From Candidatus Sulfomarinibacter sp. (GTDB lineage: Bacteria; Acidobacteriota; Thermoanaerobaculia; Thermoanaerobaculales; Sulfomarinibacteraceae): a stretch of 64,000 nt of DNA. Numbering within the stretch: the first letter of the stretch is position 1; the number at the start of each line of letters is the position of its first letter. The translations under genes and the position numbers were made by a program. The notes under the pieces are model-generated. The model saw only the letters and a list, made by a program, of their open reading frames with translations, searched no databases and was not told the origin of the DNA. This document shows, piece by piece, positions 1,951 to 35,379 of the stretch. The stretch is taken from the NCBI GenBank assembly GCA_041560205.1, contig JBFFBV010000003.1:2211-66210 (forward strand). The letters are read 5' to 3'.

Positions 1951-1966
1951 TGGCACAGATCTTGAT
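1951..1966 (+). promoter_or_regulatory. Weak sigma-54-like -24/-12 element upstream of the Cu/heme operon
   Basis: TGGCAC-agatc-TTGAtg about 140 nt upstream of the 2108 ATG. The -12 element is TTGA rather than TTGC, so the match is imperfect. Confidence 0.2.
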
Positions 1967-2107: not shown

Positions 2108-2602
2108 ATGGTTCACGCGATGCTCTGGTTGACCGCCCTCGTGTCCCTGTTCGCGATCTTCGCGATCCCGGTCGTTATCACCAACAACGACCTCCAGGTG
2201 CCCCTCCACCCCGGCGAGAGCGACCGCTGCCCGGTGTGCGGGATGCTGGTGGCCCCCCACCCCGACTGGGCCGCCCAGGTGCGGCACGGCGACGGCACGA
2301 CCGTCTTCTTCGACGGCTGCAAGGACCTCTTCAAGTATCTCCTGATGTTCGAGATCTACGCGCCGCGGCAGGACCGCCGGGACGTGGCCGCAGTCTTCGT
2401 CACCAACTATTACGACGGCGAGCTGATCGCCGCCCGCAGCGCATTCTTCGTCGCCGGCGGCGACGTCGACGGGCCGATGGGCGCGGAGCTCGTGCCCCAC
2501 CGCAGCATCGAGGCCGCCGAGGATTTCCTCAAGGACCACCACGGGCGCCGGATCCTGCGCTTCGAAGAGATCGACGAATCGGTGATTCGCGAAATGTACT
2601 GA
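2108..2602 (+). CDS. NosL-family copper-chaperone-like protein (membrane anchored)
   Basis: Last 164 aa of ORF 830..2602. ATG at 2108 is preceded by GGAAGGAGGA. N-terminal TM segment, then the DRCPVCGM motif followed by FFDGCKDLF, typical of the NosL family. Confidence 0.72.
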   Translation: MVHAMLWLTALVSLFAIFAIPVVITNNDLQVPLHPGESDRCPVCGMLVAPHPDWAAQVRHGDGTTVFFDGCKDLFKYLLMFEIYAPRQDRRDVAAVFVTNYYDGELIAARSAFFVAGGDVDGPMGAELVPHRSIEAAEDFLKDHHGRRILRFEEIDESVIREMY

Positions 2603-2619
2603 GGAAGGAGGAACTTCCG

Positions 2620-3402
2620 ATGCTTCGGCTCGATACCTCGCACGCGCTCGCCGCCCCTCCACCGCGTCGCCAACCCGCCCGCCTTCGCCCCGTCGCCGCG
2701 AGGGTCCGCGCCGACCCCGAGCCCCGTCCGGACCTGGTCGAGGCCCACCGGGTGAGCAAGCGCTTCGCTTCGCCGGGCCGCGCCGGCGTCGCCGCGGTCG
2801 ACGACGTCACCATCCGCATCCCCGAGCGTTCGATCACGCTGATCCAGGGCCCGAGCGGCTCCGGCAAGACGACCCTGCTCGCGGTCATCGGCTGCATGCT
2901 GCGGCCGACGGCCGGCCGGGTCACCGTGGCCGGCCGCGACATCACGCGGCTGTCGGAGGATCTGCTGGCCGACGTGCGAAGGCGCCACTTCGGCTTCGTG
3001 TTCCAGAGCCGCCACCTGATCCAGCGCGCGACCGCGCTCGAAAACGTGATGGTGCCGGGCCTCCCCTGCCCCGAGTTCAACGGCGACCTCCGGCTGCGCG
3101 CGCGCTCGCTGCTGGCGCGGCTCGGCCTCGAGGCGAAGGCCCACCGGCGCGTCCAGAGCCTCTCCGGCGGCGAGCAGCAGCGGGTGGCCATCGCGCGCGC
3201 GCTGGTCAACGACCCGGAGGTGCTGATCGCCGACGAGCCGACGGCCCACCTCGACTCCAGCTCGGGCTCCACGTTCATCCACCTCGCCTTCGAGCTGCTG
3301 GCTCGCGGCAAGTCCGTCATCGTGGCCAGCCACGACCCCGCCATCTGCAGCATCGATTCCTACACCCGGGTCTTCGAGCTGCGCGACGGCCACCTGGTCT
3401 GA
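2620..3402 (+). CDS. ABC transporter ATP-binding protein (MacB/LolD/FtsE-like)
   Basis: ATG at 2620 follows GAGGAAGGAGGAA. Walker A GPSGSGKTT, signature LSGGEQQRVAIARAL, Walker B VLIADEPT, and FVFQSRHLI...ALENV typical of the FtsX-partner ATPase clade. Confidence 0.9.
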   Translation: MLRLDTSHALAAPPPRRQPARLRPVAARVRADPEPRPDLVEAHRVSKRFASPGRAGVAAVDDVTIRIPERSITLIQGPSGSGKTTLLAVIGCMLRPTAGRVTVAGRDITRLSEDLLADVRRRHFGFVFQSRHLIQRATALENVMVPGLPCPEFNGDLRLRARSLLARLGLEAKAHRRVQSLSGGEQQRVAIARALVNDPEVLIADEPTAHLDSSSGSTFIHLAFELLARGKSVIVASHDPAICSIDSYTRVFELRDGHLV

Positions 3403-3414
3403 GGGGGTGACGGC

Positions 3415-4416
3415 GTGGTCCTCAGCCTCCCCGTCCTCGCCCTCCTCGGCTGCTCGGCGGTCGTCTGCGGCCTCACCGTCATGGCCGCGGCCGTCGGTAT
3501 GTCGGTCGCGATCGGCTGGGACCACCTCGACAGCGGGCCGGAGCAGCTGCTCCGCGAACGGCGCTGGTTCCTGGTCGAGGCGAGCCTGCGCCTGATCTTC
3601 GGCCTGCAGGTGTTTTCGCTCGTGCTCTTCGTCTTCGCCACCGACCACCTCGCGCCACTCTTCACCGGGGCGATGTGCGCGGTGGGCACCCTCAAGGCCA
3701 GCCAGATCGGTTTTCCGACCCTGCTCGTCAAGGTCGGGGTCTTCGCGCTCTGCGGCCTGTGGCTGGTCGCCGACAGCGTCAGCGCCGGCGCCGCGAGCAC
3801 CGGTCTGGTCCGCTTCAAGGTCGTCTCGCTGCTGGCGCTCGCCGCCGCGCTGGCGGGCGAGAACCTGCTCCAGATCCGCTACTTCCTCGACCTCGACCCG
3901 GACATCATCACGTCCTGCTGCGCGACGCTCTTCGACCGGGGGGCCGCCGGCATCGGCGCGGGCGTCGCGAGCATTTCGCCGACTCTGAGCCGGGCCGCGT
4001 TCTTCGGCGGCCTCGTGCTCACGGCCGTGGTCGGCATGCGCGCTTTCGGCAGCCGCCGCTTCGCCCTCGCCTACTCGGTCCTGGCCGCGGCCCTCGGCGC
4101 GATCTCGACCGTGGCGATCATGACCTGGATCGCTCCGGCTTACTACGAGCTCCCCACCCATCACTGTCCGCTCTGCCTGCTGGCCGCTGAGCACGGCTTC
4201 ATCGGGTATCCGCTCTACCTCTCGCTGGCGGCAGCCGTCATCACGGGCGTCGGCAGCGGGCTAGTTTCCGCTTTGCGGGCGATCGACCCTCTCCGCTGCA
4301 TCCGGCCGCAGGAGGAGCGAAAGCTCTGCACCGTGTCCCTCGCCTGCTTCGCGCTGGTCACCGGCATCGCGCTGTGGCCGATGGTGACCTCGCCCTTTCG
4401 AATGGAGGTCCTGTAA
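3415..4416 (+). CDS. Polytopic membrane protein of unknown function with CC and HHCPLC motifs
   Basis: GTG at 3415, 7 nt after GAGGGGG and 12 nt after the upstream stop. About 8 hydrophobic segments. Cys motifs: ITSCCATLF and ELPTHHCPLCLL. I do not recognise the family. Confidence 0.6.
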   Translation: MVLSLPVLALLGCSAVVCGLTVMAAAVGMSVAIGWDHLDSGPEQLLRERRWFLVEASLRLIFGLQVFSLVLFVFATDHLAPLFTGAMCAVGTLKASQIGFPTLLVKVGVFALCGLWLVADSVSAGAASTGLVRFKVVSLLALAAALAGENLLQIRYFLDLDPDIITSCCATLFDRGAAGIGAGVASISPTLSRAAFFGGLVLTAVVGMRAFGSRRFALAYSVLAAALGAISTVAIMTWIAPAYYELPTHHCPLCLLAAEHGFIGYPLYLSLAAAVITGVGSGLVSALRAIDPLRCIRPQEERKLCTVSLACFALVTGIALWPMVTSPFRMEVL

Positions 4417-4495
4417 GCGATGCTCACCGGCGGGGCCACCAACCCCGCCACAACGTCAACACCCTTCGCTGTGAAGGGCGCACCAGGGGGTGGTC

Positions 4496-5938
4496 ATGAA
4501 GCAATCGTCTCGATGCATACGCCTGGCGTTGCTCGGCGGTGTGATTCTGATCTTCGGAGTCGCCGAGTCCTTCGCCATACCGACCTTCGCGCGCCGCTAC
4601 GCCACGAGCTGCGCGACCTGCCACGAGGCCTACCCGCGCCTCAACGCCGTCGGCGACTCGTTCCGGATGATGGGCTTCCGCTTTCCGGACGACGAGCGCT
4701 ACCGCAAGGTGCAGCCGGTCGAGCTCGGCGACGAGGCCTACAAGCGGCTGTGGCCGAAGGCGCTGTGGCCGAGCCACGTCCCCGGGAGATCGCCCCTGGC
4801 GCTGGTCACGCGCTTCATGTTCGAGGTCGACCTCAACGGCAGCCGCCAGGCGGCGACCACCTTCCTGCTGCCGGAGGAGATCGAGCTCGTGTGGGCCGGC
4901 AACCTCGGCGAGAACATCGCCTTCTACGGTGACGTGATCTATCTGCAGAAGGACTTCGGCGGTAAGGACCCGGAATCCTGGGCCACCCTCAAGGCGTGGC
5001 TGCAGCTGCAGAGCCTGTTCGGGCGAGACCATCTCTTCAACCTGCGCATCGGCACCGTCGGTACCCAGACGATGGGGCTCTTCAACGCCCGCGACGCCAA
5101 CATCTACAGCACCCACTTCTACATCTACACCTCGTGGTTCATGCCGCGGCCCAACCTCGCCCAGGCCGGGTTGTCGGAGTTTGAGGGCAACAACTTCTCG
5201 ATCACACCGCAGCAGGGCTTCGAGCTCAACGGCCTCGGCAAGAGGTGGTTCTACGCTCTCGGCATCGTCAACGGCAACCTCCTGGTGCCCGCAGGGTCCC
5301 CTCCCCCGAGCGACATCAGCTTCGTCGGCTCGGGGCGGAACACCGACCACAAGGACCTCTACGCCAATGTCGTCTACAAGATCGGCGGCACCCAGTTCGA
5401 CCGCAGCAGCGAACAGCTGCCCGCCACGCTCGGCGCTTCCGGCTCGCAACACTGGCGCGACAACAGCCTCCGGCTCGCCCTCTTCGGCTACTCCGGCACG
5501 GCCGAGATCACGACCGTCGACCTCGAGGGCGGGACGTCGGTCGGGGAGGACGACTTCTGGCGGCTCGGCGTGGGGCTCCAGCACTATATCGGCGATTTCC
5601 AGTGGTCCGCGCAGTACACCGCCGGCAGCAACGACGATCCGTACGGCAGCCTCAGCGGGCAGGCGGTCGACTCGCGGACCTGGCACGTCGAAGCTCTCGG
5701 ATTCGCCTATCCGTGGCTGATGCTCTATGGGCGCTGGGAGGGGCTCGACCTGGACCTTCCGTCGGACGTCCCCGGCCTGGTGCCCGTCCAGGACATCGAA
5801 AAGATCGTCGCCGGGGCCAAGTTCATGATCCGGCCGAACGTGTTCTGCAACGTCGAAGGCACCTACTACACCGAAGGGGCCGAACTGGAGGCGGGCCTTG
5901 ACCAGACGCTCTTCATGCTGCTCGGCATCTCGTTCTGA
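4496..5938 (+). CDS. Outer-membrane beta-barrel protein with N-terminal CXXCH; Cyc2-like fused monoheme cytochrome-porin candidate
   Basis: ATG at 4496 follows CAGGGGG. Signal peptide MKQSSRCIRLALLGGVILIFGVAESFA. The mature N-terminus IPTFARRYATSCATCHEAYPRLNAVGDSFR carries a single CXXCH. The rest shows alternating amphipathic strands with aromatic girdles and ends in a terminal Phe (LLGISF). Confidence 0.6.
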   Translation: MKQSSRCIRLALLGGVILIFGVAESFAIPTFARRYATSCATCHEAYPRLNAVGDSFRMMGFRFPDDERYRKVQPVELGDEAYKRLWPKALWPSHVPGRSPLALVTRFMFEVDLNGSRQAATTFLLPEEIELVWAGNLGENIAFYGDVIYLQKDFGGKDPESWATLKAWLQLQSLFGRDHLFNLRIGTVGTQTMGLFNARDANIYSTHFYIYTSWFMPRPNLAQAGLSEFEGNNFSITPQQGFELNGLGKRWFYALGIVNGNLLVPAGSPPPSDISFVGSGRNTDHKDLYANVVYKIGGTQFDRSSEQLPATLGASGSQHWRDNSLRLALFGYSGTAEITTVDLEGGTSVGEDDFWRLGVGLQHYIGDFQWSAQYTAGSNDDPYGSLSGQAVDSRTWHVEALGFAYPWLMLYGRWEGLDLDLPSDVPGLVPVQDIEKIVAGAKFMIRPNVFCNVEGTYYTEGAELEAGLDQTLFMLLGISF

Positions 5939-6620
5939 GGCGCTCCGTTGCCTCGCCTCGGCCGTCCTGGCGGCGGCGGTGGTCCTCGGAGCGGCCCCGA
6001 TCGAGGGCTCCTGCCCGGGCTGCGGCTCCGTGTCCGGCACGGTCGCCGTCGAGCAGGCCTACATCCGCAGCGACGGCCCCAAGCACGACCGCGACGTCGT
6101 CGTCATGCTGTCGCCGACCGGAGCCGAGGCCCCGCCGGAGCCCGCGGCGCACGCGTCGATGGACCAGAGGGGTCTGATCTTCGTGCCGCACGTGCTGGCC
6201 GTGCCGAAGGGCGCGACCGTCACCTTCCTCAACAGCGACCGGGAGCAGCACAACGTCTACTTCCTCGACGACCGCACCGGCGACACCCTCGACATCGGCA
6301 CCTGGGGACCCGGGGTCAGCGTCGACCACAGCTTCGACACGCCCGGGATGGTCATCACCCTGTGCAAGCTCCACCTCGAGATGGCGGCCTACGTGGTGGT
6401 GTGTCCGAGCCCGTGGTTCGTGCAGGTCGCATTCGAGGACAACGACACGCCGCTTCGCTTCGAGATCGCCGACGTCCCGGCCGGCGAGTACGAGCTGACG
6501 GTGTGGCACAAGAAGCTCAAGCAGAAGGGAGGATCGTTGACGATCGACGTGCAACCCGAGAAGTCCACCGAGGTGGACCTTGTCATCACGAAGGCAAAGT
6601 ACGCCAGGGCAGCTCGCTGA
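5898..6620 (+). CDS. Type-1 copper cupredoxin (plastocyanin/'methylamine utilization'-like) with C-terminal Ig/CarboxypepD_reg-like domain
   Basis: TTG at 5898, 6 nt after GGAGG (5887-5891), overlapping the upstream gene by 41 nt. Signal-like LASAVLAAAVVLGAAP. T1Cu ligand pattern: HNV ... C-K-L-H-L-E-M. C-terminal FEIADVPAGEYELTVWHKK. Confidence 0.72.
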   Translation: MTRRSSCCSASRSEALRCLASAVLAAAVVLGAAPIEGSCPGCGSVSGTVAVEQAYIRSDGPKHDRDVVVMLSPTGAEAPPEPAAHASMDQRGLIFVPHVLAVPKGATVTFLNSDREQHNVYFLDDRTGDTLDIGTWGPGVSVDHSFDTPGMVITLCKLHLEMAAYVVVCPSPWFVQVAFEDNDTPLRFEIADVPAGEYELTVWHKKLKQKGGSLTIDVQPEKSTEVDLVITKAKYARAAR

Positions 6621-8604
6621 GGGCGGGCTCGCGGGATTCGGAGGCTGGGACCTGCGGTCGGCGGCTCGTCCGAGCGTGATCTGGCGCTGGTGGCCGGCCG
6701 CCGTCGTCGCGATGGCCTGTGTGGCCTTCTTCCAGGCGACACGGCCCGAGGTGGTCGTGGCGGCGTCGCCCCGAGAGGTCGAGATCATGGCGCGACAGTA
6801 CGCCTACGAGCCGCACCGCATAGTCGTCGACCCCGGCGACGAGGTCCACCTCCGGCTCGCCTCGACCGACGTCGTGCACGGCTTCTACCTCGAGGGGCAC
6901 GACATCGAGGCGGAGATCCGGCCGGGCTCGCTCACCGCCTGGGCCCGGCGCCCCTCCACCGGCGAGGATTTCCGCGAGCTCGAGGAGATCGTGTTCACCG
7001 CCGGCAGGCCCGGCAAGTACCGCTATCGCTGCTCGGTGACCTGCGGGACCCTCCACCCCTTCATGCAGGGCGAGATGATCGTGCGCCCGAACCTGCTCTA
7101 CCGGGCGTCGCTGATCGCGGCCTGCGGCCTGACCCTGGGCATCTTCGGTCTGATGATGACCGGCGCGTTGGGCAACGGCGTCTCCCGGGCTACGGGAAGT
7201 CCACCGTGCCGCCGGATCGACCTGCTGCGAGTGCTTCCCGGGCTGAGGTGGCTGGTGACGCGACGCTGGTTCCAGTTCGCCGTCGTCCTTCCCAACCTGC
7301 TGGTGCTCTTCTTCTTCGTCGTCGCCGGCTTCTTCGGCTCGCCGATCGGCAACCGCAACATCATCGTGACGATCGTCTGGATCCTGTGGTGGTTTCTCCT
7401 CATCACCGTCCTCGTTCCGGCCGGCGGCAGGGTGTGGTGCATGGCCTGCCCGGTCCCCTTCGCCGGCGAGTGGCTGGCGAGGCGCCGCCTGATCGGCGTC
7501 CGGCGCGAGGCCGAGAGATCGCGGTCCCTCCGCACCGGCGGCCTGAACCGCCGCTGGCCCCACCGTCTGTCGCGAATGTGGCTGCAGAACCTGCTCTTCC
7601 TCACCGTGTGCACCGTGTCGACCATCCTGGTCACCCGGCCCGCGCTGACAGCGGCGGTTCTCATGACGATGGTGGTGGCGGCCGTGGCGATGCACGCGCT
7701 CTACAAGAGACGGAGCTTCTGCAGGTACCTCTGTCCGCTCAACGCGTGGCTCAGCGTGTACTCGATGGCCTCGGCGACGGAAATCCGGCCCCGCGACACC
7801 GGTCTGTGTGCCGACTGCAGAGACCACTCCTGTGCCGGCGGGTCGGCCGAGGCCTGGGGCTGCCCGTGGATGGTCAACCCCTCCAAGCTCGACCGCAACA
7901 ACTACTGCGGCCTCTGCATGGAGTGCATCAAGGCCTGCCCCAACGACAACATGAGCCTTCACGCGCGCCCCGTATTCGCCGACGTGTCGATCCGCCGCCT
8001 CGACGAGGCCTTCATGGCCCTGATCATGATCGCTCTCGTGATCGCCTACACCGTCACGCTCCTCGGACCATGGGGCACGCCCCGCGAGTGGTCCAACGTC
8101 ACCGAGGTCGGCAACTGGGGAGGCTTCGCCCTCCACGCGTCGGTCGTGTGGCTGTGCGCCCTGGGGCTCGTCCCCGCGATCTGGTACGGCCTCTCGTGGC
8201 TGGCGCACCGGGTCGCGGGCACGAGCACCGTGTCCGTCCGCGAGATCTTCGTCCGCTCCACCTACCTCCTGGTGCCGGTCGGTCTGCTCGCGTGGATCGC
8301 CTTCAGCCTGCCCCTCATCATGCTCAACTGGACCCACATCGCCTCCTCGCTGTCGGACCCCCTGGGGTGGGGCTGGGACCTCTTCGGAACCGCCCGCCAG
8401 CACTGGAGCCCCCTCTACCCCGAGTGGATCCCCTCGCTCCAGGCCCCGCTGCTGCTGCTCGGTCTCGCAGTGGCCCTGGTGCGCGGTCACCGGGTGGCCC
8501 AGGGCCTCTTCGCCGATCCTTCGGCCGCCATCCGCAGCCTGATTCCGCACGGTCTGGCCTGCGCCGCCATCACCGCCGTCATGCTGCGGCTTTTCGTGGG
8601 ATGA
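6580..8604 (+). CDS. CuA-type (COX2-like) cupredoxin domain fused to NapH/NosH/MauN-like membrane polyferredoxin
   Basis: N-terminal TM WRWWPAAVVAMACVAFF. Cupredoxin with DVVHGFYL ... C-SVT-C-GTL-H-PF-M, which is the CuA ligand spacing. Then multiple TM segments with CMACP and CRYLCP (CX2-3CP) motifs, and two ferredoxin motifs (CADCRDHSC...CPW; CGLCMECIKACP). Start uncertain: TTG 6580 (SD GAGG; 41-nt overlap with the upstream gene), CTG 6652 (after GGAGG) or GTG 6676. Confidence 0.8.
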   Translation: MSSRRQSTPGQLAEGGLAGFGGWDLRSAARPSVIWRWWPAAVVAMACVAFFQATRPEVVVAASPREVEIMARQYAYEPHRIVVDPGDEVHLRLASTDVVHGFYLEGHDIEAEIRPGSLTAWARRPSTGEDFRELEEIVFTAGRPGKYRYRCSVTCGTLHPFMQGEMIVRPNLLYRASLIAACGLTLGIFGLMMTGALGNGVSRATGSPPCRRIDLLRVLPGLRWLVTRRWFQFAVVLPNLLVLFFFVVAGFFGSPIGNRNIIVTIVWILWWFLLITVLVPAGGRVWCMACPVPFAGEWLARRRLIGVRREAERSRSLRTGGLNRRWPHRLSRMWLQNLLFLTVCTVSTILVTRPALTAAVLMTMVVAAVAMHALYKRRSFCRYLCPLNAWLSVYSMASATEIRPRDTGLCADCRDHSCAGGSAEAWGCPWMVNPSKLDRNNYCGLCMECIKACPNDNMSLHARPVFADVSIRRLDEAFMALIMIALVIAYTVTLLGPWGTPREWSNVTEVGNWGGFALHASVVWLCALGLVPAIWYGLSWLAHRVAGTSTVSVREIFVRSTYLLVPVGLLAWIAFSLPLIMLNWTHIASSLSDPLGWGWDLFGTARQHWSPLYPEWIPSLQAPLLLLGLAVALVRGHRVAQGLFADPSAAIRSLIPHGLACAAITAVMLRLFVG

Positions 8605-8611
8605 GGAGGTC

Positions 8612-9559
8612 ATGAACAGCGAACGACTCGCCGCCGCGCTCGTGATCCTGCCGATGGTGGCCATCGTCACGGCCATCGCGTGGTTCGGCTGGCTCTCCGA
8701 GCGGGTTCTCGGCGCGCAAGAGACCGTCGTCTTCGATCTCACGGGGGTGGCCTCGGCCGGCGTCTGGACCCTCGGTCCCGTCAACGGCCTGAACTACTGG
8801 TGGCGTGACTTCCAGCCCGCGACCCTGCAGGTCACCGAGGGCGACGAGGTGGTCATCCACCTGAGGAGCGCCGACGTCTTCCACCGCTTCTACCTGCCGG
8901 CCTTCGAGGTCGGACCGGTGGCGATCGAGCCTGGCCACACCGTGACGGTCCGCTTCACGGCCGACCGTGCGGGCATCTATCAGTACTACTGCACATCGAT
9001 GTGCGGTGGCTGCCACTTCTACATGCGCGGGTGGATCGTCGTCAGCAGGGAGGGCGAAGATCCGGTCCAACCCCCGCCGATCATGTGCACCCTGTGCCGC
9101 CCGGATGACCTGCCACGCCCCACCAGCGAGAGCCTCGTCGACCGGGGCGCCTACCTCTACCTCGAAAAGGGCTGCGTGACCTGCCACGGCCCCGAGGGCC
9201 AGGGCGGAATCGTCAACCACAACTCGGCCAACAGCCCGGTGCCCGCGCACAACACGACCGCCGAAAAGCTCTTCCTCCGATCGCCGGAGGATGCCGAGGC
9301 CTTCATCCGACTGCTGGACGAGCACGACGACCTCGAAGCTCTCGAGGAGCCGCCGGAGATCGGCCTCTTTCCGGTCGTGCGCACCCGCTACGAGAACGCG
9401 AGGGAGATCGTCCGCAAGGGGCGGTACTCTTCGAAGCTCGACCCGGCCGGTCCGGAACCGCCGCTGCAGATGCCGGCATGGCAGCACATCGTGCGGGACC
9501 GGGAGATCGACGCGCTGTTGGTCTACTTCGTATCGCTCTATCCCTGGGAGGAGGGCTGA
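8612..9559 (+). CDS. CuA-type cupredoxin domain fused to class-I cytochrome c
   Basis: ATG 7 nt after the upstream stop. N-terminal TM. ADVFHRFYLP - x - C-TSM-C-GGC-H-FY-M has the spacing H-x35-C-x3-C-G-x2-H-x2-M seen in COX2 CuA sites. C-terminal half has CVTCH and a distal LQMPAW. Confidence 0.8.
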   Translation: MNSERLAAALVILPMVAIVTAIAWFGWLSERVLGAQETVVFDLTGVASAGVWTLGPVNGLNYWWRDFQPATLQVTEGDEVVIHLRSADVFHRFYLPAFEVGPVAIEPGHTVTVRFTADRAGIYQYYCTSMCGGCHFYMRGWIVVSREGEDPVQPPPIMCTLCRPDDLPRPTSESLVDRGAYLYLEKGCVTCHGPEGQGGIVNHNSANSPVPAHNTTAEKLFLRSPEDAEAFIRLLDEHDDLEALEEPPEIGLFPVVRTRYENAREIVRKGRYSSKLDPAGPEPPLQMPAWQHIVRDREIDALLVYFVSLYPWEEG

Positions 9560-9876
9560 TGACGAGAGGCTACAGGATCGTGATCGCCCTGGTGCTTCTC
9601 GAGGCTGTGACCGTGGCCGCCCTCAGCGTCGCCGGAAGCGCCGCGAGCCGCGTGGACGATCAGGCTCGGCAGTCCAACCGCCGCCTGGTCCGCGAGATGC
9701 TGCTCACCGACCTTGCCCTCAGCACCGGCACCAGCTATTGCCGCCACCCGTCGCAGACCGACCTCTTCGCGCCTTACGGCGACCACCCCTCGGCTATCGA
9801 GCACTTCCCGGCGGGATCCATCATGGCACCTCCGGCCGTCTCGACTCCCTCCACCGCAACCGGACCCGGACCATGA
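9559..9876 (+). CDS. Small single-TM protein, unknown function
   Basis: Its ATG overlaps the upstream TGA (cTGATGa). Its stop overlaps the next ATG (ATGA at 9873-9876). N-terminal TM IVIALVLLEAVTVAALSVAG. No recognisable family. Confidence 0.5.
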   Translation: MTRGYRIVIALVLLEAVTVAALSVAGSAASRVDDQARQSNRRLVREMLLTDLALSTGTSYCRHPSQTDLFAPYGDHPSAIEHFPAGSIMAPPAVSTPSTATGPGP

Positions 9877-11039
9877 GACGCCATCTTCGAATCCTCGACT
9901 TCGCCATCGCGAACCTGCGCCGCAGACCGGCGAAGTTTCTGGTCGTCGTTCTCGTCTACTCGATCCTGGTCGCAGCTCTCGCCTCGCTCATGATGTTCGT
10001 CGACGCCGTCCGGCGTGAGGCTCGCTCGCTCCTCGACGGGTCCCCCGAGATCATCGTGCAGAGCCTTCGCGGAGGCCGGCACGAGCTGATCCCGGTCGAG
10101 CGCGCCGATGCGATCCGGGCGATCCGCGGCGTCGGCAGCGTCACACCGCGGGTGTGGGGCTACTCCTACGACCCGCCGACCGGCGCGACCCTCACCTTCT
10201 GGGGCGCCGAATCCGTGCCCGACGAGTCCCTGGCTTTCGAGGATCAGGAGCTGTCGAGCGGTGAGCTCGTCGGCGGGTGCGTCATCGGGTCCGGGCTCGC
10301 CGACCTCCGCTTCCTGGGGGTCGGTGACCGCCTCCCTGTGAAGGGGTACGACGGGTCGCTGTTCGCGCCGAAGGTGGTCGGCATATTCGAAAGCTCTTCG
10401 TCAATTCTCACCAATGATCTCGTCGTCTGGCCGACCGACGACCTCCGCCGCGTCTTCGCTATCGACCCCGCCCTCGCAACCGATCTCGCCGTCGAGATCC
10501 ACAACCGCAACGAGATCGACACGGTCGCGGCGAAGATCCTCGACAGGTGGCCGGACGCGCGCGTCATCACCCGGGATCAGATCTTCGCCACCTACGACGC
10601 GGCCTTCGACTGGCGTGGAGGGCTGTGGGCCGCCTTCATGGCATGTTGCGTGGCCGCCTTCGCGATCCTGGTCTGGGACAAGGGAACGGGGCTCTCCGCC
10701 GAAGAGTACCGGACCATCGGTCTGCTCAGGGCCACCGGCTGGAAATCGCGGGAGGTCATGGAGCTCAGGGTTTTTGAAGGCGGGCTGGTCTCGCTCGTTG
10801 CATTCCTCACGGGGCTCATCATCGCCCAGATCCACCTGATCTGCTTCGACGGCTTCGTCTTCGCCCGTGTCATCAAGGGATGGTCGGTGCTCTTTCCCTC
10901 CTTCGAGATCGTGCCCGTTCTCGACCTCCCGACGCTCCTGATCTGCGGATCGCTGTCCCTCGTGCCCTACATCGCGGCCAACCTGGTGCCGTCCTGGAAG
11001 GCCTCCGTCACCGATCCAGACTCCGTGCTCCGAAGCTGA
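9873..11039 (+). CDS. ABC transporter permease, FtsX/MacB family
   Basis: Last 388 aa of ORF 9291..11039. N-terminus MRRHLRILDFAIANLRRRPAKF, a periplasmic MacB-like domain, and a C-terminal FtsX 3-TM bundle (RTIGLLRATGWKSREV). Confidence 0.85.
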   Translation: MRRHLRILDFAIANLRRRPAKFLVVVLVYSILVAALASLMMFVDAVRREARSLLDGSPEIIVQSLRGGRHELIPVERADAIRAIRGVGSVTPRVWGYSYDPPTGATLTFWGAESVPDESLAFEDQELSSGELVGGCVIGSGLADLRFLGVGDRLPVKGYDGSLFAPKVVGIFESSSSILTNDLVVWPTDDLRRVFAIDPALATDLAVEIHNRNEIDTVAAKILDRWPDARVITRDQIFATYDAAFDWRGGLWAAFMACCVAAFAILVWDKGTGLSAEEYRTIGLLRATGWKSREVMELRVFEGGLVSLVAFLTGLIIAQIHLICFDGFVFARVIKGWSVLFPSFEIVPVLDLPTLLICGSLSLVPYIAANLVPSWKASVTDPDSVLRS

Positions 11040-11051
11040 AGAGATCGATCG

Positions 11052-11486
11052 ATGCGCGCAGCTTCAATCCTCGCGACCGCAATTTTGATCATGGTTGCCT
11101 GCTCGCCCACCGCGCCGATGCACCAGCTGGTGGCGTCCGACGGCGACGCCGTTCGGATCTCCCTCCAGGAGGTGTCGGACGGCTCGGTCCACTTCTTCAC
11201 CTTCATCCACCGGGGGACGCGAGTGAACTTCCTCGTCCGGACGGACGGAGACGGCGCCCAGCACGCCCACCTGGACGCCTGCTATGCGTGCTATCGCTAC
11301 AAACAGGGATTCGTGGTCGAGGACGAAGCGTTGGTGTGTATCGCCTGCCGGCTCGAATACCGGCTCGAGGACGAGATCTGGGACTACATCGGCGCCTGCG
11401 CCCCGATCGAGATTCACGCGTCGTTGGAAGGCGGTGCGCTGGTCATCGACGAGGCGGTCCTCGAGCGCGCCGCCCGCTACTTCTGA
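11052..11486 (+). CDS. Cys-rich lipoprotein, DUF2318 (FtrD/FetA-like Fe-S/metal-binding) candidate
   Basis: Lipobox ILIMVAC. VHFFTF...NFLVRTDGDG...LDACYACYRYKQGF...LVCIACRL has two CxxC pairs in the arrangement I associate with DUF2318 proteins found next to FtsX/ABC genes. Confidence 0.6.
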   Translation: MRAASILATAILIMVACSPTAPMHQLVASDGDAVRISLQEVSDGSVHFFTFIHRGTRVNFLVRTDGDGAQHAHLDACYACYRYKQGFVVEDEALVCIACRLEYRLEDEIWDYIGACAPIEIHASLEGGALVIDEAVLERAARYF

Positions 11487-11519: not shown

Positions 11520-12770
11520 CTAGATGACCGTCCCGTCCGGGATGACCGCGTTCTTGGCCACGACCACGATGCCGTCGCGGATCGCCCAGCCGTCGCCCTC
11601 GGCCTCCTCGATCCCGGCTTCGTTGCAGATGCGGACCTTGCGGCCGATGCGGGCGTTCTTGTCGATGATGGCGTTGCTGATCTCACAGCCCTCGCCGATG
11701 CCGGGCTCCGGCTCTCCTGGCTCCGGGGCCGGGTAGTGCGAGTCGATGCCCATGATCAGGGCGTTGCGGACCGTTGACTTCCGGATCACGCCGCGCAGGC
11801 CGACGACCGCGTTTTCGATCTCGGAGTCCTCGACCCTGGATCCGTCGGAGAGCAGCGCGCGGTCGAAGCGGCACCGGTGGAGCCTGGCTCCGGGGAGGTA
11901 GCGCGGACGAGTGTAGATCGGCCACGCCTGGTCGTGGAAGGAGAATTGCGGATCCTCTTCCACGAGGTCCATGTGGGCCTGGAAGAAGGCGCCGATGGTC
12001 CCGATGTCGCGCCAGTAGCCCTTGAAGAAGTGGGCCTGGACGCGGCGCTTGGAAACCTCGGCCGGGATGATGTCGCCGCCGAAGTCGACGAGCGCATTGT
12101 CCAGCGCCTCCACGAGCGCCTGCTTGCGGAAGATGTAGATCCCCATCGACGCGAGGTAGGGCAGATCGGAGGACACACCCTTGGCCTCGAGGAGGCTCGG
12201 CGCGACCTCCATCCCCGCTCTCTCTGCGGCGGTCGAGGGCTTCTCCCGGAACTCGACGATGCGCCCGCTCTCGTCGACCATCACCGCCCCGAAGCCGGCG
12301 ATCTCCTGGCTCGAGCACGGCTTGACGGCGATCGTGATGTCGGCTTCATGGTCGACGTGGTCCTGCAGGAGCTGGCGGTAGTCCATGCGGTACATGTGGT
12401 CGCCGGCGAGGATCAACACGTGCTCGCCCGGAAGCTGCGTGAAGATGTGGAGGTTCTGCCTGACGGCATCGGCGGTTCCCTGGAACCAGGTCTGGACCGT
12501 CGGCGTCTGCTGCGCGGCGAGGATCTGCACGTAACCGCGGGAGAAGGCGTCGAATCGATAGGTGCGTCCGATGTGGCGGTGGAGCGACACCGAGTTGAAC
12601 TGGGTGAGGACGTACATCCGCTCCATGCCCGAGTTGATCGCATTCGAGATCGGGATGTCGATCAGCCGGTACTTCCCCGCCACCGGCACGGCCGGCTTGC
12701 TCCGGCGGAGGGTCAGAGGCGCAAGTCGCGTGCCGCGGCCGCCGCCGAGGATCAAGACTGTGACGTCCAA
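11520..12770 (-). CDS. glgC: Glucose-1-phosphate adenylyltransferase
   Basis: Full-length ORF. N-terminus LILGGGRGTRLAPLTLRRSKPAVPVAGKYRLIDIPISN, and a left-handed beta-helix C-terminus (IGEGCEISNAIIDKNARIG). Confidence 0.92.
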   Translation of the reverse strand: MDVTVLILGGGRGTRLAPLTLRRSKPAVPVAGKYRLIDIPISNAINSGMERMYVLTQFNSVSLHRHIGRTYRFDAFSRGYVQILAAQQTPTVQTWFQGTADAVRQNLHIFTQLPGEHVLILAGDHMYRMDYRQLLQDHVDHEADITIAVKPCSSQEIAGFGAVMVDESGRIVEFREKPSTAAERAGMEVAPSLLEAKGVSSDLPYLASMGIYIFRKQALVEALDNALVDFGGDIIPAEVSKRRVQAHFFKGYWRDIGTIGAFFQAHMDLVEEDPQFSFHDQAWPIYTRPRYLPGARLHRCRFDRALLSDGSRVEDSEIENAVVGLRGVIRKSTVRNALIMGIDSHYPAPEPGEPEPGIGEGCEISNAIIDKNARIGRKVRICNEAGIEEAEGDGWAIRDGIVVVAKNAVIPDGTVI

Positions 12771-16508: not shown

Positions 16509-17569
16509 GCATCCCAGCTCAGGAGGACCAGCTCGGAGCAGAAGCCCGGTCCCATGGCGGTCATCAGCCCCAAGCTCTCCGCCGGCGGCGGCGACTCGAG
16601 AACCTCCTCCAGCACCAGGAGGACCGACGTCGACGAGAGGTTGCCGACCTCCCGCAGGGTCCTCCAGGCTCCATCGAGCGCCCCATCTGGAAGCTCCAAC
16701 GCCTCCTGCATCGCTTCCAGCACCCTCGGCCCTCCGGGATGCGTGATCCAGACCGCCACATCCTTCCTTTGCAGACCGTGCTCGTCGAGGAACGCGTCGA
16801 CATCCCGCCGCAGATAGCGGCGGACCATCTCGGGCACCTCGGCCGAGAGGACGATCTTGAATCCTCGCTCCGACACGTCCCAGCCCATGACCCTCTCGGT
16901 ATCGGGGTAGAAGGAAGAACAGCTGTCGACAATTCTCGGCCCGGTTGGAGACCTCTCCTCCCCCACCAGGACCGCGGCCGCTGCGCCGTCACCAAAGAGC
17001 CCGGAACCGATCAGGTTCTCCACCGACAGATCATCGCGCTGCAGCGTCAGCGAGCACAGCTCCACCGACAGCAACACGGCGACGTCCTTCGGGTGGCCCT
17101 TCAAATAGTCGGCGGCGCGCGCGACCCCGGCGGCCCCGGCGAGGCAACCGAGGCCGAAGATCGGCACCCGCTTCACGCGTGACGGCAGCGACAGGCGGTT
17201 CATCAGGCGGGCGTCGATTGACGGTGTGGCGACACCGGTCACCGTCGTGAAGAACAGCGCGTCGACGTCGTCGACCTCGAGTCCCGCGCGTTCGAGGGCC
17301 TGCGTCACCGCCTGGCCGCCGATCTCCTCCGCGACCCTGATCCAGTGGTCGTTGGCCTGGCCCCAGTTCTCGATTTTCAGGTATTCCTCCATCGGCAGGG
17401 CGAGGTGCCGGCCGCCGACCAGCACGTTGCGGTGGAGCTTCTCGATCCGTTCGACGTTGTGATAGCGCCCGGCCCACTGCTCGCGAAAAGCCGCCAGCAG
17501 CGTCTCCTGGTCGTAGTGGTGCTCCGGCAGCGCCGAACCGACGGCGGTGATTCTCACGACGCTTCGCAC
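16505..17569 (-). CDS. Type III polyketide synthase (chalcone-synthase superfamily)
   Basis: GTG at 17569 follows GGGAG. Active-site Cys context VPIFGLGCLAGAAG. C-terminal HPGGPRVL and GPGF motifs. Confidence 0.92.
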   Translation of the reverse strand: MRSVVRITAVGSALPEHHYDQETLLAAFREQWAGRYHNVERIEKLHRNVLVGGRHLALPMEEYLKIENWGQANDHWIRVAEEIGGQAVTQALERAGLEVDDVDALFFTTVTGVATPSIDARLMNRLSLPSRVKRVPIFGLGCLAGAAGVARAADYLKGHPKDVAVLLSVELCSLTLQRDDLSVENLIGSGLFGDGAAAAVLVGEERSPTGPRIVDSCSSFYPDTERVMGWDVSERGFKIVLSAEVPEMVRRYLRRDVDAFLDEHGLQRKDVAVWITHPGGPRVLEAMQEALELPDGALDGAWRTLREVGNLSSTSVLLVLEEVLESPPPAESLGLMTAMGPGFCSELVLLSWDA

Positions 17570-17737
17570 CCGACTCCCGGGGCGCCCCGCCCCGGTCCCA
17601 TGGATCTCGAAAATGCTTTCAGCCGTTCCATCGCCGTGTGCAACAGGGATGTGCGCCCGTGTATTGCTTCTCGATTCGCCGCCGGAACCTGGATCCGGCG
17701 CTCGCGAAGCCGCTGTTTCCGGTTAGCATGGGGCGCG

Positions 17738-19879
17738 ATGGCCGTGAGCGACAGGTCCCCCCGTTCGACGGAATGGATCCGTTCAGCGCTGGTCTCGGTG
17801 GCGGCGGTGGCCGTCACCGGCGTGGCCTGGCTTCTCGGATGGTTGCCGCCGATGGAACGCGTGACGGGCGACTTTCTCCTTCGCACGTCGACCACCGAAA
17901 GCGGCCGTGACCCGCAGGTGATCGCGGTTCTGATCGATGATCTGGCGGTCGACCGCCTGGGACCTCTTCCCTGGCCCCGCGACAGGTTGGCCGACCTGAT
18001 CGCCGCCGTTCATGATTCAGGCGCGACCGGCGTTGCCATCGATCTCATCCTTTCGGATGCAAGCACGGTCGAGGCCGATCGGGCCCTCGCCGAGGCGCTT
18101 GCAGGCTCGCCAAAGGTTTTGGCCGCCGCCTTCGACAAAGACGGCAAGTGGTTGCTTCCGATTCCCGCCCTCGGCGGCGCGGCATCCGCAGCCCACGCCT
18201 ACGGTGAGGTCGGCCCCGACGGCGTCGTTCGAACGGTCGCAGCCACCAAGCAAGCGCACGGTCTTTCCCTCCCCGCCCTGTCGCTCGCCGCTGCGAGGCT
18301 GGTGATGCCCGAGATCGCAATCGAGGCGGGAGTCGAGATCCGACCCGAGTTCCGACCGGCCCCTCAGTCCCTCCCGATCCTCAGCGCGGCGAGAATTCTC
18401 GACGGCTCATTCGATCGCAACGAGATTTCAGGGCGGCTCGTGTTCATCGGCCTCTCGGCGACCGGGGCCGGAGACCAGTTCGTCGTTCCCACGGGCCCGC
18501 GTCACGCGCCCGTACCGGGTGTGGTGGCGCACGCCTCGGCCGCGACCTCGATCATCCATGGCCGACTCCTTCGAGTTCTCGATTTCTGGTGGACTCTGGC
18601 CGCTGCGGTCATTCTCTCCTTCGGCGTCCAGGTGATCCGAAACCGCCGCGGCGCATTCGATATCGCCTCGTTCATGGGCCTCGCCGTCGGCCTCGTTCTG
18701 ATCGCGTCCGCCGCTGTCCGTTTCGGTCTGCTCTTGATGCCCGCGACGACGCTGCTCACAGCGGCCGTCATGTCGGCACTCCTCCGGGAAGCGATCGAAT
18801 CGCGGTCGGCCCGGCTCGAGAGCGGCCGCCTGCTGCAGGCGTTGCTCGAACACGTCGGTGCCACGCGATCTGCTGTACCACGCACCGCGCATACCCGTCT
18901 CGGAGCGCTGCGCCGTCTCCAGGAGCGTGTTCTGGAGGAGGACGCGACCCGCAGGGCCCTGCTCACGGGAATGGACGAAGGTGTCGTTTTGTGGAACGCG
19001 GCCGGCGAGGTGGTGCTCGCCAACCCGGCCGCGGAGCGGCTCTGGGGGAGTCTGGCGGAGCTCGGCGAGCTCGCGTCCGGCCCGGTAACACCCGATCCGC
19101 TCGTGGTGCCCCGCGGCGGTCGCCAGCTCGCGGTCGGACTGACCGACCTCGAGCGCGGCCGGCTCGCCATCATTCGGGACATCTCTGCCGAGCACGCGCT
19201 GGAGCGCCGTCGCCAGGAGATGCAGCGGCTCGTTTCCCACGAGCTCAAGACGCCGCTCGCCTCGATCGCCGGTTTCGGGGAAGCCCTCGAACGCTACGAG
19301 CTCTCCGCTGATGAGCAGCGGAGGGTCGCCGCGCTGATCCGCGGGGAGGCGGGACGCTTGCAGGAGATGGTGACGGTCTTTCTCGATCTCGAGCGCTTGG
19401 GTGGCGGCCACTGGGTCGGATCGACTGACGAGGTCGATTTCGGGCGGCTGGTCACATCCCGTCTCGAGGTCCTCGAGGCCGCGGCCAATGCCAGGGGTCT
19501 GGAGCTCCGTGCGTCCATCGAGGACGACTGCAAAGTCCACGGTGTGCCCGCCCTGCTCGATCGAGTGGTCGACAATCTGGTCGGCAACGCCATCAAATAT
19601 TCCGCCGAGGACACGTGGGTGGATATCGGAGTTGAGCGAGAGGGCGAGAACATCGTGATGCGCGTGCGCGACTGCGGGCCCGGAATTCCCGAGCAGCATC
19701 GACAGCGGATCTTCGACCGTTTCTACCGTATTCCCGGCTCACCCGGCGCCGGAGCCGGTCTGGGGCTTGCCCTCGCCAAGGAGGTGGTCGATTGGCACGG
19801 AGGATGCATAGAAATGGAGAGTGAGATCGGGGCCGGCAGCACCCTGATGGTCCGGCTGCCGGTCTCGGGGGAGACGTAG
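17738..19879 (+). CDS. CHASE2-PAS sensor histidine kinase
   Basis: ATG at 17738. CHASE2-like IAVLIDDLAVDRLGPLPWPRDRLADLI...GVAIDLILSD, TM cluster, PAS (MDEGVVLWNAAGEVVLANPAAERLWG), HisKA SHELKTPLASI, HATPase GLGLALAKEVV. Confidence 0.85.
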   Translation: MAVSDRSPRSTEWIRSALVSVAAVAVTGVAWLLGWLPPMERVTGDFLLRTSTTESGRDPQVIAVLIDDLAVDRLGPLPWPRDRLADLIAAVHDSGATGVAIDLILSDASTVEADRALAEALAGSPKVLAAAFDKDGKWLLPIPALGGAASAAHAYGEVGPDGVVRTVAATKQAHGLSLPALSLAAARLVMPEIAIEAGVEIRPEFRPAPQSLPILSAARILDGSFDRNEISGRLVFIGLSATGAGDQFVVPTGPRHAPVPGVVAHASAATSIIHGRLLRVLDFWWTLAAAVILSFGVQVIRNRRGAFDIASFMGLAVGLVLIASAAVRFGLLLMPATTLLTAAVMSALLREAIESRSARLESGRLLQALLEHVGATRSAVPRTAHTRLGALRRLQERVLEEDATRRALLTGMDEGVVLWNAAGEVVLANPAAERLWGSLAELGELASGPVTPDPLVVPRGGRQLAVGLTDLERGRLAIIRDISAEHALERRRQEMQRLVSHELKTPLASIAGFGEALERYELSADEQRRVAALIRGEAGRLQEMVTVFLDLERLGGGHWVGSTDEVDFGRLVTSRLEVLEAAANARGLELRASIEDDCKVHGVPALLDRVVDNLVGNAIKYSAEDTWVDIGVEREGENIVMRVRDCGPGIPEQHRQRIFDRFYRIPGSPGAGAGLGLALAKEVVDWHGGCIEMESEIGAGSTLMVRLPVSGET

Positions 19880-19882
19880 CCA

Positions 19883-34237: not shown

Positions 34238-34353
34238 GGCTCACCTCCGAGGCGCGACGGCAGCCGGGCCGCGTCGGTTATAATGCCCGGCGTCCACCGC
34301 CGCAGTGTGGTAACGAGCCGCAACACTATACACCGGTGGTTCACCTGCGTCGC

Positions 34354-35379
34354 ATGTACCAGATGAAGAAGGAGCGACAGATCTCATATCAGAAGACCTC
34401 CCATCAGGAGTCGGAGCCCGACACCGTGCGGTCCTTGATCTCGGATTATCTCGAGCTCGCCAAAGCGCGCCTGGGCGCCCTCGTCGTGTTGACGGCCTGC
34501 GTCGGCTACGTGCTGGGAGCTCGCGGTGAGATTTCGCTGCGGGGCTTGGCGGCCGCGGTCGTGGGGACCGCGCTCAGCGCATTCGGCGCCAACATCCTCA
34601 ACCAGTGGCGTGAGGCTGAGCGCGACAGCCTCATGCTCCGCACGCGCGAGCGGCCGCTGCCGGCGGGGAGAATCAGCGCGAGGGTGGCGGCATTTCTGGG
34701 CCTCATCACGGCCGCCGCCGGTCTCGTGATCCTCGCTTTCGGTACCAACTGGCTCACGACCCTCCTCTCGCTCTTCGTCATTCTCCTGTACGTCCTCGTC
34801 TACACGCCGCTCAAGGTGAAGACGCCCCTCAATACCGTCATCGGCGCGATCTGTGGCGCGGTGCCGCCGATGATGGGCTGGACCGCGGCCACGGGTCGCC
34901 TCGACGCGGGGGCCTGGATTCTCGGTGGAATTCTCTTCGCGTGGCAGATCCCCCACTTCCTCGCCCTCGCCTGGCTCTACCGCGAGGATTACGCTCGCGG
35001 CGGTTTCCGCATGCTGCCGGCGATCGACCGAGAGGGCCGTCTCACCGCACGACTCGCATTTCTCTACGCGGCGGCGTTGCTGCCGATTACGGCTGCCCTT
35101 AGCGCCTTTGGCGTGACCGGGGGCGCCTTTCTCGTGACCTCACAAGCGATCGGTGTTGCCTTCCTGGCGCTCGGCTGGATCTTCCTCAGGACGCGCAACA
35201 GGCCGGCTGCGCGTCGCCTCTTCCTGGCCAGCATCCTCTATCTCCCGGTCCTCCTGGGTCTGATGGTCGTCGACGTGGATGATCGCGCGGTCCGGGGCGG
35301 TGAGGTAACGGTCGCATCCTCGAATCCGACGACTTCGGGCGCCGAGGTCGTCACCGTTCATCCACACGAAGGGCTCTGA
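34354..35379 (+). CDS. ctaB: Protoheme IX farnesyltransferase (heme O synthase)
   Basis: UbiA-family motifs (NQWREAERDSLMLRTRERPLPAGR; YREDYARGGFRMLP). Start is ATG 34354 or 34363 within ORF 34336..35379. Confidence 0.88.
   Translation: MYQMKKERQISYQKTSHQESEPDTVRSLISDYLELAKARLGALVVLTACVGYVLGARGEISLRGLAAAVVGTALSAFGANILNQWREAERDSLMLRTRERPLPAGRISARVAAFLGLITAAAGLVILAFGTNWLTTLLSLFVILLYVLVYTPLKVKTPLNTVIGAICGAVPPMMGWTAATGRLDAGAWILGGILFAWQIPHFLALAWLYREDYARGGFRMLPAIDREGRLTARLAFLYAAALLPITAALSAFGVTGGAFLVTSQAIGVAFLALGWIFLRTRNRPAARRLFLASILYLPVLLGLMVVDVDDRAVRGGEVTVASSNPTTSGAEVVTVHPHEGL

Follow-up and report, generated by a model that had tools for sequence, protein, structure and literature searches.

The gene cassette described here lies in a stretch of 64 000 nucleotides (nt) from contig JBFFBV010000003.1 of Candidatus Sulfomarinibacter sp. 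(referred to as the window) and combines a predicted cytochrome-porin of the outer membrane with copper-containing electron carriers and a copper-linked ABC (ATP-binding cassette) module. ORF calling revealed ten open reading frames (ORFs) on the plus strand between positions 2108 and 11486 (g01–g10, Table 1). The initial annotation, which was made from the letters of the sequence and a list of its ORFs, had counted eleven genes; this was wrong, and its own list also holds ten. All its domain calls were upheld by profile searches against Pfam and NCBIfam. The intergenic gaps amount to 7–79 nt, and the reading frames overlap at the junctions g07/g08 (TGATG, 9557–9561) and g08/g09 (ATGA, 9873–9876), as first described. 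Two further overlaps of 41 nt arise only from the TTG starts of g05 (5898) and g06 (6580), both of which are uncertain: g05 may start at 5979, as called in the related locus L001 (loci of the genome comparison below carry L numbers), and g06 at 6676 (GTG) or 6712 (ATG). A ribosome-binding site, GGAAGGAGG, is located just 5' of g01. The cassette is bounded on both sides by genes on the opposite strand, and its G+C content (0.64–0.72) is the same as that of the flanks.

The g04 product is 480 residues long and carries its haem-binding motif CATCH at residues 39–43, behind a hydrophobic leader. No Pfam or NCBIfam match was obtained for it. Members of the Cyc2 family are defined by a signal peptide, a single CXXCH near the N-terminus, the motif AxPxFAR[Q/K][T/Y] five residues before and PxL four residues after the CXXCH, a length of at least 365 residues and a C-terminal porin of 16 strands (Keffer et al., 2021, PMC8406198). 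The g04 sequence fits the motif definition, with a conservative Arg at the [Q/K] position, which is Lys in many homologues. Approximately 209 homologues were detected; they stem without exception from uncultured genomes, spread over many phyla, and each is annotated as hypothetical. In an alignment of 21 sequences, the N-terminal pattern F-x-R-x-Y-x-TSC-x-TCH-x3-P-x2-N, including C39, C42 and H43, is invariant, so that the CXXCH is conserved together with the published Cyc2 motif. The pattern PxF[A/S/T]R..-x3-CxxCH is present in 77 of 79 related loci (the strict motif in 28, PxL in 70), and 59 of the 79 relatives end in Phe. In an AlphaFold2 model built on the alignment, residues 100–480 form the barrel that had been predicted initially, with a predicted local distance difference test (pLDDT) score of about 85. 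The top Foldseek matches of the model are the 16-strand porins OmpT, OmpC and PorB (E ~1e-11), from which a count of about 16 strands is predicted. Judged by its motif, its length, the CXXCH and the predicted barrel, g04 is a member of the Cyc2 family of fused cytochrome-porins.

The three following genes encode copper proteins with well-conserved predicted ligands. For g05, the best sequence matches in the PDB are plastocyanins. Its type-1 copper ligands C156, H159 and M162 are found in 70 of 70 sequences, and H118 in 89%. Both g06 and g07 carry the full CuA ligand set H...C-x3-C-x3-H-x2-M in a cupredoxin domain. In g07 these ligands (H91, C127, C131, H135, M138) are present in all 21 sequences, as are the haem-binding residues C188, C191 and H192, with a distal Met287 in 95%. 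In g06, H100, C151, C155, H159 and M162 are present in all 17 homologues which carry the N-terminal domain. The copper sites that had been read from the single sequence are thus borne out by conservation of their ligands. Among PDB sequences both domains match CuA domains, best that of Thermus (E 1e-13 to 1e-14; 1.5e-14 for g06) and more weakly NosZ. In NCBIfam, g07 matches Sec-dependent NosZ (7.6e-17) and CoxB (1.3e-15).

The body of g06 contains two CX3CP motifs (CMACP, CRYLCP) next to transmembrane (TM) helices and two [4Fe–4S] motifs (Cx2Cx4C...CP and Cx2Cx2Cx3CP), the cysteines being 88–100% conserved, which is the pattern of the NapH/NosR/CcoG superfamily of polyferredoxins. The match to the NapH family TIGR02163 (E 2.6e-10) remains below the equivalog level, at 40 bits versus a curated cut-off of 213, and a distant relationship exists to the CcoG protein of the window itself (E 6e-5). 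Profile searches of the products with Pfam and NCBIfam revealed no FMN_bind domain in g06 and no NapG in the cassette. By hydropathy and the positive-inside rule, applied by eye, the CuA domain is predicted to be periplasmic and the CX3CP motifs and the Fe–S domain cytoplasmic. Cytoplasmic Fe–S clusters are also the topology of NapH and NosR. Two neighbouring but separate genes code for the CuA domain and the polyferredoxin in Planctomycetota and Gemmatimonadota (L027–L030, for example L028 12588–14594; L039 6530–9071). Fusion in some genomes and adjacency in others, the classical Rosetta-stone relation, argues that the two parts work together. In L039, an additional gene of 167 codons lies between them.

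For a view of the distribution, we scanned one genome per species, which yielded 296 loci with Cyc2-like relatives; 80 of these were kept and compared with the ten window proteins by tblastn. The genes for Cyc2 (g04) and the blue-copper protein (g05) are adjacent in 72 of the 80 loci, g05 being immediately downstream, even at about 30% identity. The four-gene core g04–g07 also occurs in Planctomycetota, Gemmatimonadota, Betaproteobacteria and others, and in loci of these three groups it lacks g01–g03 and g08–g10. The full cassette, with the same gene set and order, was found in at least 13 genomes of several phyla: in Thermoanaerobaculia, Holophagae and other Acidobacteriota, in Methylomirabilota, in Desulfobacteraceae and Desulfobulbaceae (Desulfobacterota) and in Verrucomicrobiales (Verrucomicrobiota). 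One host is the cultured and completely sequenced Desulfoluna limicola ASN36, in which the accessory genes follow the core contiguously. A short Chondromyces contig (L005) contains the first six cassette genes. That the same genes recur in the same order in so many genomes, at least 13 and from different phyla, is beyond chance. Taken by gene content, the cassette is composed of two nested modules, a redox core (g04–g07) and an accessory module (g01–g03 and g08–g10). Directly downstream of the cassette in a Verrucomicrobiales metagenome-assembled genome (MAG), a DDE transposase gene is located (L003, 18063–18872). This transposase and the patchy distribution across phyla suggest horizontal transfer of the cassette.

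Outside the four-gene core, the pair of g04 and g05 has other partners. In 45 distant loci having only the pair, we classified 115 downstream ORFs, among which are 20 cytochromes c, 16 cytochromes b, 13 Rieske proteins and 14–15 GltD-like Fe–S flavoproteins. In such distant relatives (L034–L084; for example L061 11946–15472, L072 12162–15777; also L021 12201–16236), the genes after the pair code for a GltD-like Fe–S flavoprotein of the NAD(P)H type, a Rieske protein, cytochrome b and cytochromes c. This set is reminiscent of unusual complexes of Rieske protein and cytochrome b that have been proposed for anammox bacteria and include an NAD(P) oxidoreductase subunit, and it could lead from extracellular donors to NAD(P)H. 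In L066, a set resembling alternative complex III (ACIII) is located beside the pair. As the pair is joined variously to g06 and g07, to the Rieske/cytochrome b genes with flavoprotein and cytochromes c (13–20 of the 45 loci), or to the ACIII-like set, it behaves, in terms of gene neighbourhood, as a portable outer-membrane/periplasm module which is plugged into different quinone-linked complexes of the inner membrane.

The accessory module starts with g01, of which homologous cassettes carry one or two copies. The best NCBIfam matches of the ATPase g02 are MacB, LolD and FtsE, not NosF, with the MacB ATPase domain on top (E 3.9e-56). Together with the permease g09, it has the features of a MacB-type (type VII) ABC system; an adaptor or TolC-like partner of such a system was not seen in the cassette. 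Neither g03 nor g08 matches any Pfam or NCBIfam family. An exhaustive phmmer search placed g03 in a family of 774 clusters, almost all of them stand-alone proteins of about 330 residues. Invariant in this family are C88, C168, C169, C251 and P252, which belong to the motifs GAMC, SCC and H-x-CP in three predicted periplasmic loops. The AlphaFold2 model of g03 (pLDDT 92.8) shows eight TM helices and has no significant fold match in the PDB, the best being haem A synthase (E 0.27, TM-score 0.19); the protein may represent an unsolved membrane-protein fold. The g10 gene is kept at the end of the cassette in 14 loci.

Six more distant homologues of g03 on long contigs, from a Geobacteraceae MAG and other metagenomes, were inspected. 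All six are part of a module consisting of the small TM protein, FtsX, ABC ATPase and 8-TM protein, and in five of them one or two NosL genes are included. The small protein of the Geobacteraceae module is 37% identical to g08 (E 1e-18). No Cyc2 gene is found inside these stand-alone modules; L089 contains an unannotated gene of 461 codons beside a g05-like gene. Copper-related genes are neighbours in all six (Table 1), among them Cus efflux, multicopper-oxidase and SCO1 genes, and for this reason the six-gene module probably handles copper. The initial annotation had proposed that the cassette brings its own copper-delivery machinery, and the stand-alone modules lend independent support to this. 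From its gene content, the unit of small TM protein, FtsX, ABC ATPase and 8-TM protein has the look of a type VII ABC system, related to copper and so far undescribed.

The same neighbourhood raises the question of whether the whole cassette might be a device for copper homeostasis, oxidising periplasmic or extracellular Cu(I) or reducing Cu(II) at the porin as an O2-independent counterpart of CueO or PcoA. In favour are the Cu(I) protein NosL, the company of CusAB, multicopper oxidases and SCO1 that the accessory module keeps in other genomes, and the distant relationship of g06 to CcoG, a cupric reductase. However, loci of Planctomycetota, Betaproteobacteria and Gemmatimonadota have the redox core but not the accessory module, and the pair of Cyc2 and g05 is mostly tied to respiratory complexes. 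Moreover, no sensor of the CueR, CusRS or CopRS type was seen beside the cassettes, the usual regulators being PAS/HAMP kinases and sigma-54 activators. We regard this explanation as unlikely.

Another possibility is that the cassette merely assists an enzyme encoded elsewhere: g07 would be an alternative subunit II or a dedicated donor for a haem-copper oxidase, such as the cbb3 oxidase at 36.5–41 kb, or for a distant NosZ, and the other products would be maturation factors. Subunit II of caa3 oxidases has the architecture of g07 (TM anchor, CuA domain and C-terminal monohaem cytochrome c), the CuA and cytochrome c domains of g07 also resemble the C-terminus of clade II cNosZ, and its best NCBIfam matches are the CuA domains of NosZ and CoxB. 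NosL and a NosR/NapH-like protein are themes of nos clusters, and g06 shares with NosR, NapH and NosGH the membrane core of CX3CP motifs and two [4Fe–4S] clusters. A cbb3 cluster is indeed encoded in the window, 25 kb away as first described, with CcoNO, CcoP, CcoG and a Cu-ATPase (Table 1). Genes for a UbiA prenyltransferase and a DUF3179 protein are located just upstream of this cluster (34336–36454).

The flanks of the cassettes speak against such an auxiliary role. Within 7 kb of the 13 full cassettes, neither COX1 nor a NosZ propeller is among the 25 commonest of 85 Pfam families, where a match to either would have been expected to rank. Pfam and NCBIfam searches detected no COX1 or NosZ catalytic partner in the cassette itself, the only COX1 of the window being the distant CcoN; g07 thus differs from a caa3 subunit II in having no subunit I partner in cassette or flanks. 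Oxidases of the cbb3 type have no CuA subunit. Compared with nos and nap clusters, the cassette lacks the NosZ propeller, NosDFY, NapG and NapA. From the nos set it has only NosL, combined with a MacB/LolD-type ATPase and an FtsX permease, that is, with a MacB-type system in place of NosDFY, and in g06 a CuA cupredoxin forms the periplasmic part, in place of the FMN-binding domain of NosR. In addition, the cassette is present in sulphate reducers, and such a role would not account for the outer-membrane haem porin to which it is invariably linked. On the flank content of the 13 cassettes, we reject the view, named in the initial annotation as a possible objection, that the cassette is a mere accessory block of nosZ or oxidase genes; a function of this kind is highly improbable.

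A third explanation is metal uptake coupled to oxidation, in the style of FtrABCD of Bordetella and Brucella or of FetMP–FetABCDEF. The cupredoxins would oxidise Fe(II) that has entered via the haem porin and pass its electron into the polyferredoxin, and the ABC, FtsX and DUF2318 proteins would aid uptake. Pairing of a cupredoxin with a polyferredoxin follows the logic of FtrB and FtrD, and the family PF10080 (DUF2318) of g10 is now named FtrD-like. FetABCD of Campylobacter jejuni, which comprises an 8-TM protein with DUF2318 and YHS domains (FetA), FtsX permeases and an ABC ATPase, is needed for growth at low iron (PMC10783030); DUF2318, an 8-TM protein, FtsX and an ABC ATPase recur in the cassette. 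The latter nevertheless differs from the Ftr and Fet systems in several respects: DUF2318 forms a lipoprotein of its own, NosL replaces YHS, an outer-membrane cytochrome is added, and phmmer with g03 detected no homology to the membrane domain of FetA. The interpretation of g03, g10 and g01 as a split FetA (8-TM, DUF2318 and YHS parts) was rejected, as no DUF2318 fusions occur among the best 150 matches of g03, and the parallel is one of composition only. Neither an FTR1/EfeU-type permease nor a P19/EfeO-type binding protein was found in the cassette products or among the commonest flank families, nor were P19 (FetP/FtrA) and FTR1 found among the called genes of the syntenic loci. Further, MacB-type transporters are not known as importers, the pair of Cyc2 and cupredoxin is elsewhere joined to respiratory-type complexes (Rieske/cytochrome b, ACIII-like), and three copper centres with two haems would be heavy machinery for nutrition. 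A role in metal uptake therefore appears about as improbable as one in copper homeostasis.

Upstream of the cassette, a sigma-54-type promoter-like motif was detected (Table 1). Motifs of the form TGGCAC-N5-TTG[A/C] precede the cassette in 9 of 16 related loci, with a density of 0.71 per kb compared with 0.023 per kb in the remainder of those loci; across the window this motif class is not enriched. Genes for a histidine kinase and a sigma-54 activator are found directly 5' of the Cyc2 gene in many loci, and PAS, HisKA and sigma-54 activator domains are the commonest Pfam families in the 7-kb flanks of the 13 full cassettes. Scans for sigma-70 promoters and terminators were not informative, and Rfam revealed no RNA family anywhere in the window. 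The tight spacing, the conserved gene order and the conserved upstream motif are consistent with a single operon, as had been assumed initially, and the ten genes probably form one transferable unit under sigma-54 control. Genes for a CHASE2-domain histidine kinase and, following it, a sigma-54-dependent response regulator are located 6 kb downstream of the cassette (17345–21247) and are candidate regulators for the motif at 1951.

Table 1. Cassette genes, upstream motif, cbb3 cluster and stand-alone modules. Positions of the stand-alone modules are those within the respective loci.
Feature	Position	Strand	Assignment	Evidence or neighbours
Upstream motif	1951..1965	+	Putative sigma-54-type promoter-like motif TGGCACagatcTTGA	143 nt upstream of the NosL (g01) start codon
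g01	2108..2602	+	Membrane-anchored NosL-family Cu(I) chaperone, CPVCGM	PF05573 E 1.7e-28
g02	2620..3402	+	MacB/LolD/FtsE-type ABC ATPase	PF00005 E 2.8e-33
g03	3415..4416	+	8-TM Cys/His membrane protein, uncharacterised family	GAMC, SCC and HHCPxC motifs, predicted periplasmic side
g04	4496..5938	+	Cyc2-family fused monohaem cytochrome-porin	Signal peptide, AIPTFARRY-ATS-CATCH-EAY-PRL, barrel, C-terminal Phe
g05	5898..6620	+	Periplasmic type-1 (blue) copper cupredoxin with C-terminal CarboxypepD_reg-like beta-sandwich	PF00127 E 1e-4
g06	6580..8604	+	Signal-anchored CuA cupredoxin domain and NapH/NosR/CcoG-type membrane polyferredoxin, about 11 TM	COX2/Cupredoxin_1, Fer4_5, TIGR02163
g07	8612..9559	+	Membrane-anchored CuA cupredoxin and monohaem cytochrome c	COX2 E 3.5e-7
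g08	9559..9876	+	Small single-TM protein, always 5' of the FtsX gene	Syntenic in cassettes
g09	9873..11039	+	MacB-type permease, MacB periplasmic core domain and FtsX	PF12704 E 1.3e-12, PF02687 E 3.1e-6
g10	11052..11486	+	Probable lipoprotein, DUF2318/FtrD-like Cys-rich domain (CYAC...CIAC)	PF10080 E 2.7e-18
CcoNO	36498–38789		Fused CcoN-CcoO	COX1 and FixO in one ORF of 763 residues
CcoP	38518–39666
CcoG	39674–41077
CcoI	45803–48235		CcoI-type Cu-ATPase
L085	7370–10999		Stand-alone module	CusAB-type RND (resistance-nodulation-division) pump with YHS domains, multicopper-oxidase-like protein
L086	6690–10993		Stand-alone module	CusAB-type RND pump with YHS domains
L087	8146–11008		Stand-alone module	Multicopper oxidases, SCO1
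L088	5892–9996		Stand-alone module	CtaA/CtaB
L089	6629–9993		Stand-alone module	Rieske/cytochrome b cluster with g05-like cupredoxin
L090	6845–10002		Stand-alone module	CusAB-type RND pump, multicopper oxidases

From the family membership, ligand conservation, synteny, modularity and copper-gene association observed, we infer an electron path, its carrier order, quinone coupling, direction and substrate, and a copper-loading role of the accessory module. Electrons would pass between the Cyc2 haem, the type-1 copper of g05, the CuA/cytochrome c protein g07, the CuA-polyferredoxin g06 and finally the quinone pool or the cytoplasm, and a copper-supply module would serve the carriers; we assign a probability of roughly 60% to this reading. 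The redox core would form a copper-rich electron path between the outer and the inner membrane. At its outer end, g04 may give electrons to, or take them from, a small soluble redox substrate located at the pore or within it; Fe(II) is the precedent, and g05 would be its first periplasmic partner, in a role like that of rusticyanin in Acidithiobacillus. The g07 protein and the CuA domain of g06 would then relay electrons to or from the NapH/NosR-type body of g06, and this body would connect either with quinones of the pool or with an electron donor or acceptor in the cytoplasm. Through its cytochrome c domain, g07 may in addition deliver electrons to the cbb3 oxidase, whose genes lie 25 kb away. 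The most likely task of the accessory module is to supply, or to insert, the five Cu atoms which the core would need. A conduit of this kind had been put forward in the initial annotation, and the results support it: all the refuting conditions named there that lend themselves to in silico checks were examined, and none went against it; order of the carriers, link to quinone and direction are the parts drawn by inference.

High potentials are usual for blue copper, CuA and c-type haem centres. The evidence on the direction of electron flow points both ways. Inward flow, that is metal oxidation, is suggested because Fe(II) oxidation is the sole demonstrated activity of Cyc2 and a cbb3 oxidase is present. 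Outward flow is suggested because the high-potential copper and haem centres make the passage from quinol to the outside downhill, and because the cassette is also found in strict anaerobes.

Several points weigh against the proposed path. Delivery of electrons from high-potential copper and haem centres into the quinone pool would be uphill, and we know of no energy coupling for a NapH-type protein. As the Fe–S clusters of g06 are predicted to be cytoplasmic, no explanation is at hand for how electrons would cross the membrane, a difficulty shared with NapH and NosR, and 'quinol dehydrogenase' is for this reason a tentative label for g06. Some hosts of the cassette (Desulfoluna, Desulfobacteraceae) are strict anaerobes and thus unlikely to oxidise Fe(II) in the classical aerobic way. 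For Cyc2 homologues beyond the well-studied clusters, a function has yet to be proven (PMC8406198). In the g04 model, confidence is low for the N-terminal haem domain (pLDDT 25–40). The accessory module could serve copper resistance instead of cofactor loading, two roles which the neighbouring genes cannot separate. Finally, the support for every cassette member comes from sequence, synteny and models.

Among the closest known counterparts of the proposed conduit is the Acidithiobacillus ferrooxidans rus operon (Cyc2-Cyc1-Cup-CoxBACD-Rus), which likewise unites a monohaem porin of the Cyc2 family, a type-1 copper cupredoxin and a CuA protein. There, electrons leave the outer membrane via copper proteins, the logic which we propose here. 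In contrast to the rus operon, the cassette contains no CoxA, no dihaem c4 cytochrome and no rusticyanin homologue, and adds the CuA-polyferredoxin fusion, the stand-alone CuA-cytochrome c protein and the six-gene copper-handling module. Its hosts are neutrophilic and many of them anaerobic, unlike the host of the rus operon. With the pathway of neutrophilic iron oxidisers (Cyc2PV-1 to Cyc1 to cbb3 or ACIII), the cassette shares the outer-membrane family and its motif (PMC8406198) as well as a cbb3 oxidase in the genome; ACIII-like or Rieske/cytochrome b genes are also located beside distant relatives of the pair. It differs in that the periplasmic carriers are copper proteins and not soluble cytochromes, and in that the partner in the inner membrane is a polyferredoxin. 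For the g04 clade iron oxidation is a putative activity, in contrast to Cyc2 of the neutrophilic oxidisers.

Every part of the cassette belongs to a known family, and the logic of Cyc2 plus cupredoxin echoes the rus operon. No description of the gene combination was found in open-access papers and bioRxiv. The same applies, in the searchable open-access literature, to the CuA-polyferredoxin fusion, the stand-alone CuA-cytochrome c protein, the near-constant pair of Cyc2 and blue-copper protein across many phyla, and the attached module of NosL, MacB-type system and 8-TM protein. For microbial iron oxidation, the electron route linking outer-membrane Cyc2 with the inner membrane has yet to be settled, and the cassette offers a concrete, conserved set of partners: the blue-copper protein, which nearly always adjoins this Cyc2 clade, two CuA proteins and a polyferredoxin. 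It also bears on the unsettled role of the many Cyc2 homologues outside the classical iron oxidisers. In Desulfoluna limicola ASN36, cultured and with a complete genome, it is open to genetics and biochemistry.

CuA is otherwise known chiefly as the entry site of terminal oxidases and N2O reductase; the cassette points to CuA domains working outside these enzymes. It also points to a widespread, uncharacterised copper-linked module of ABC ATPase, FtsX, NosL and 8-TM protein, which may illuminate the unexplained FetABCD proteins of pathogens. A more far-reaching and distinctly tentative proposal is that of a copper-wired extracellular conduit in which the CuA centres are pure relays between a NosR/NapH-like polyferredoxin and a Cyc2 porin. 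By this means, diverse sediment bacteria including strict anaerobes might, with neither a bc1 complex nor multihaem cytochromes, exchange electrons with soluble metals of high potential, such as ligand-bound Fe(II)/Fe(III) or Mn(II)/Mn(III), and a hitherto unrecognised MacB-type, NosL-dependent machine might load periplasmic proteins with copper.

Divergently upstream of the cassette, a large secreted FG-GAP repeat protein is encoded on the minus strand (35–1894). An FG-GAP protein with a weak Cu-oxidase match also adjoins the stand-alone copper module in L085 (2519–6175), which may be coincidence. The ORF at the downstream boundary (11520–12770, opposite strand) is a candidate GlgC by appearance.

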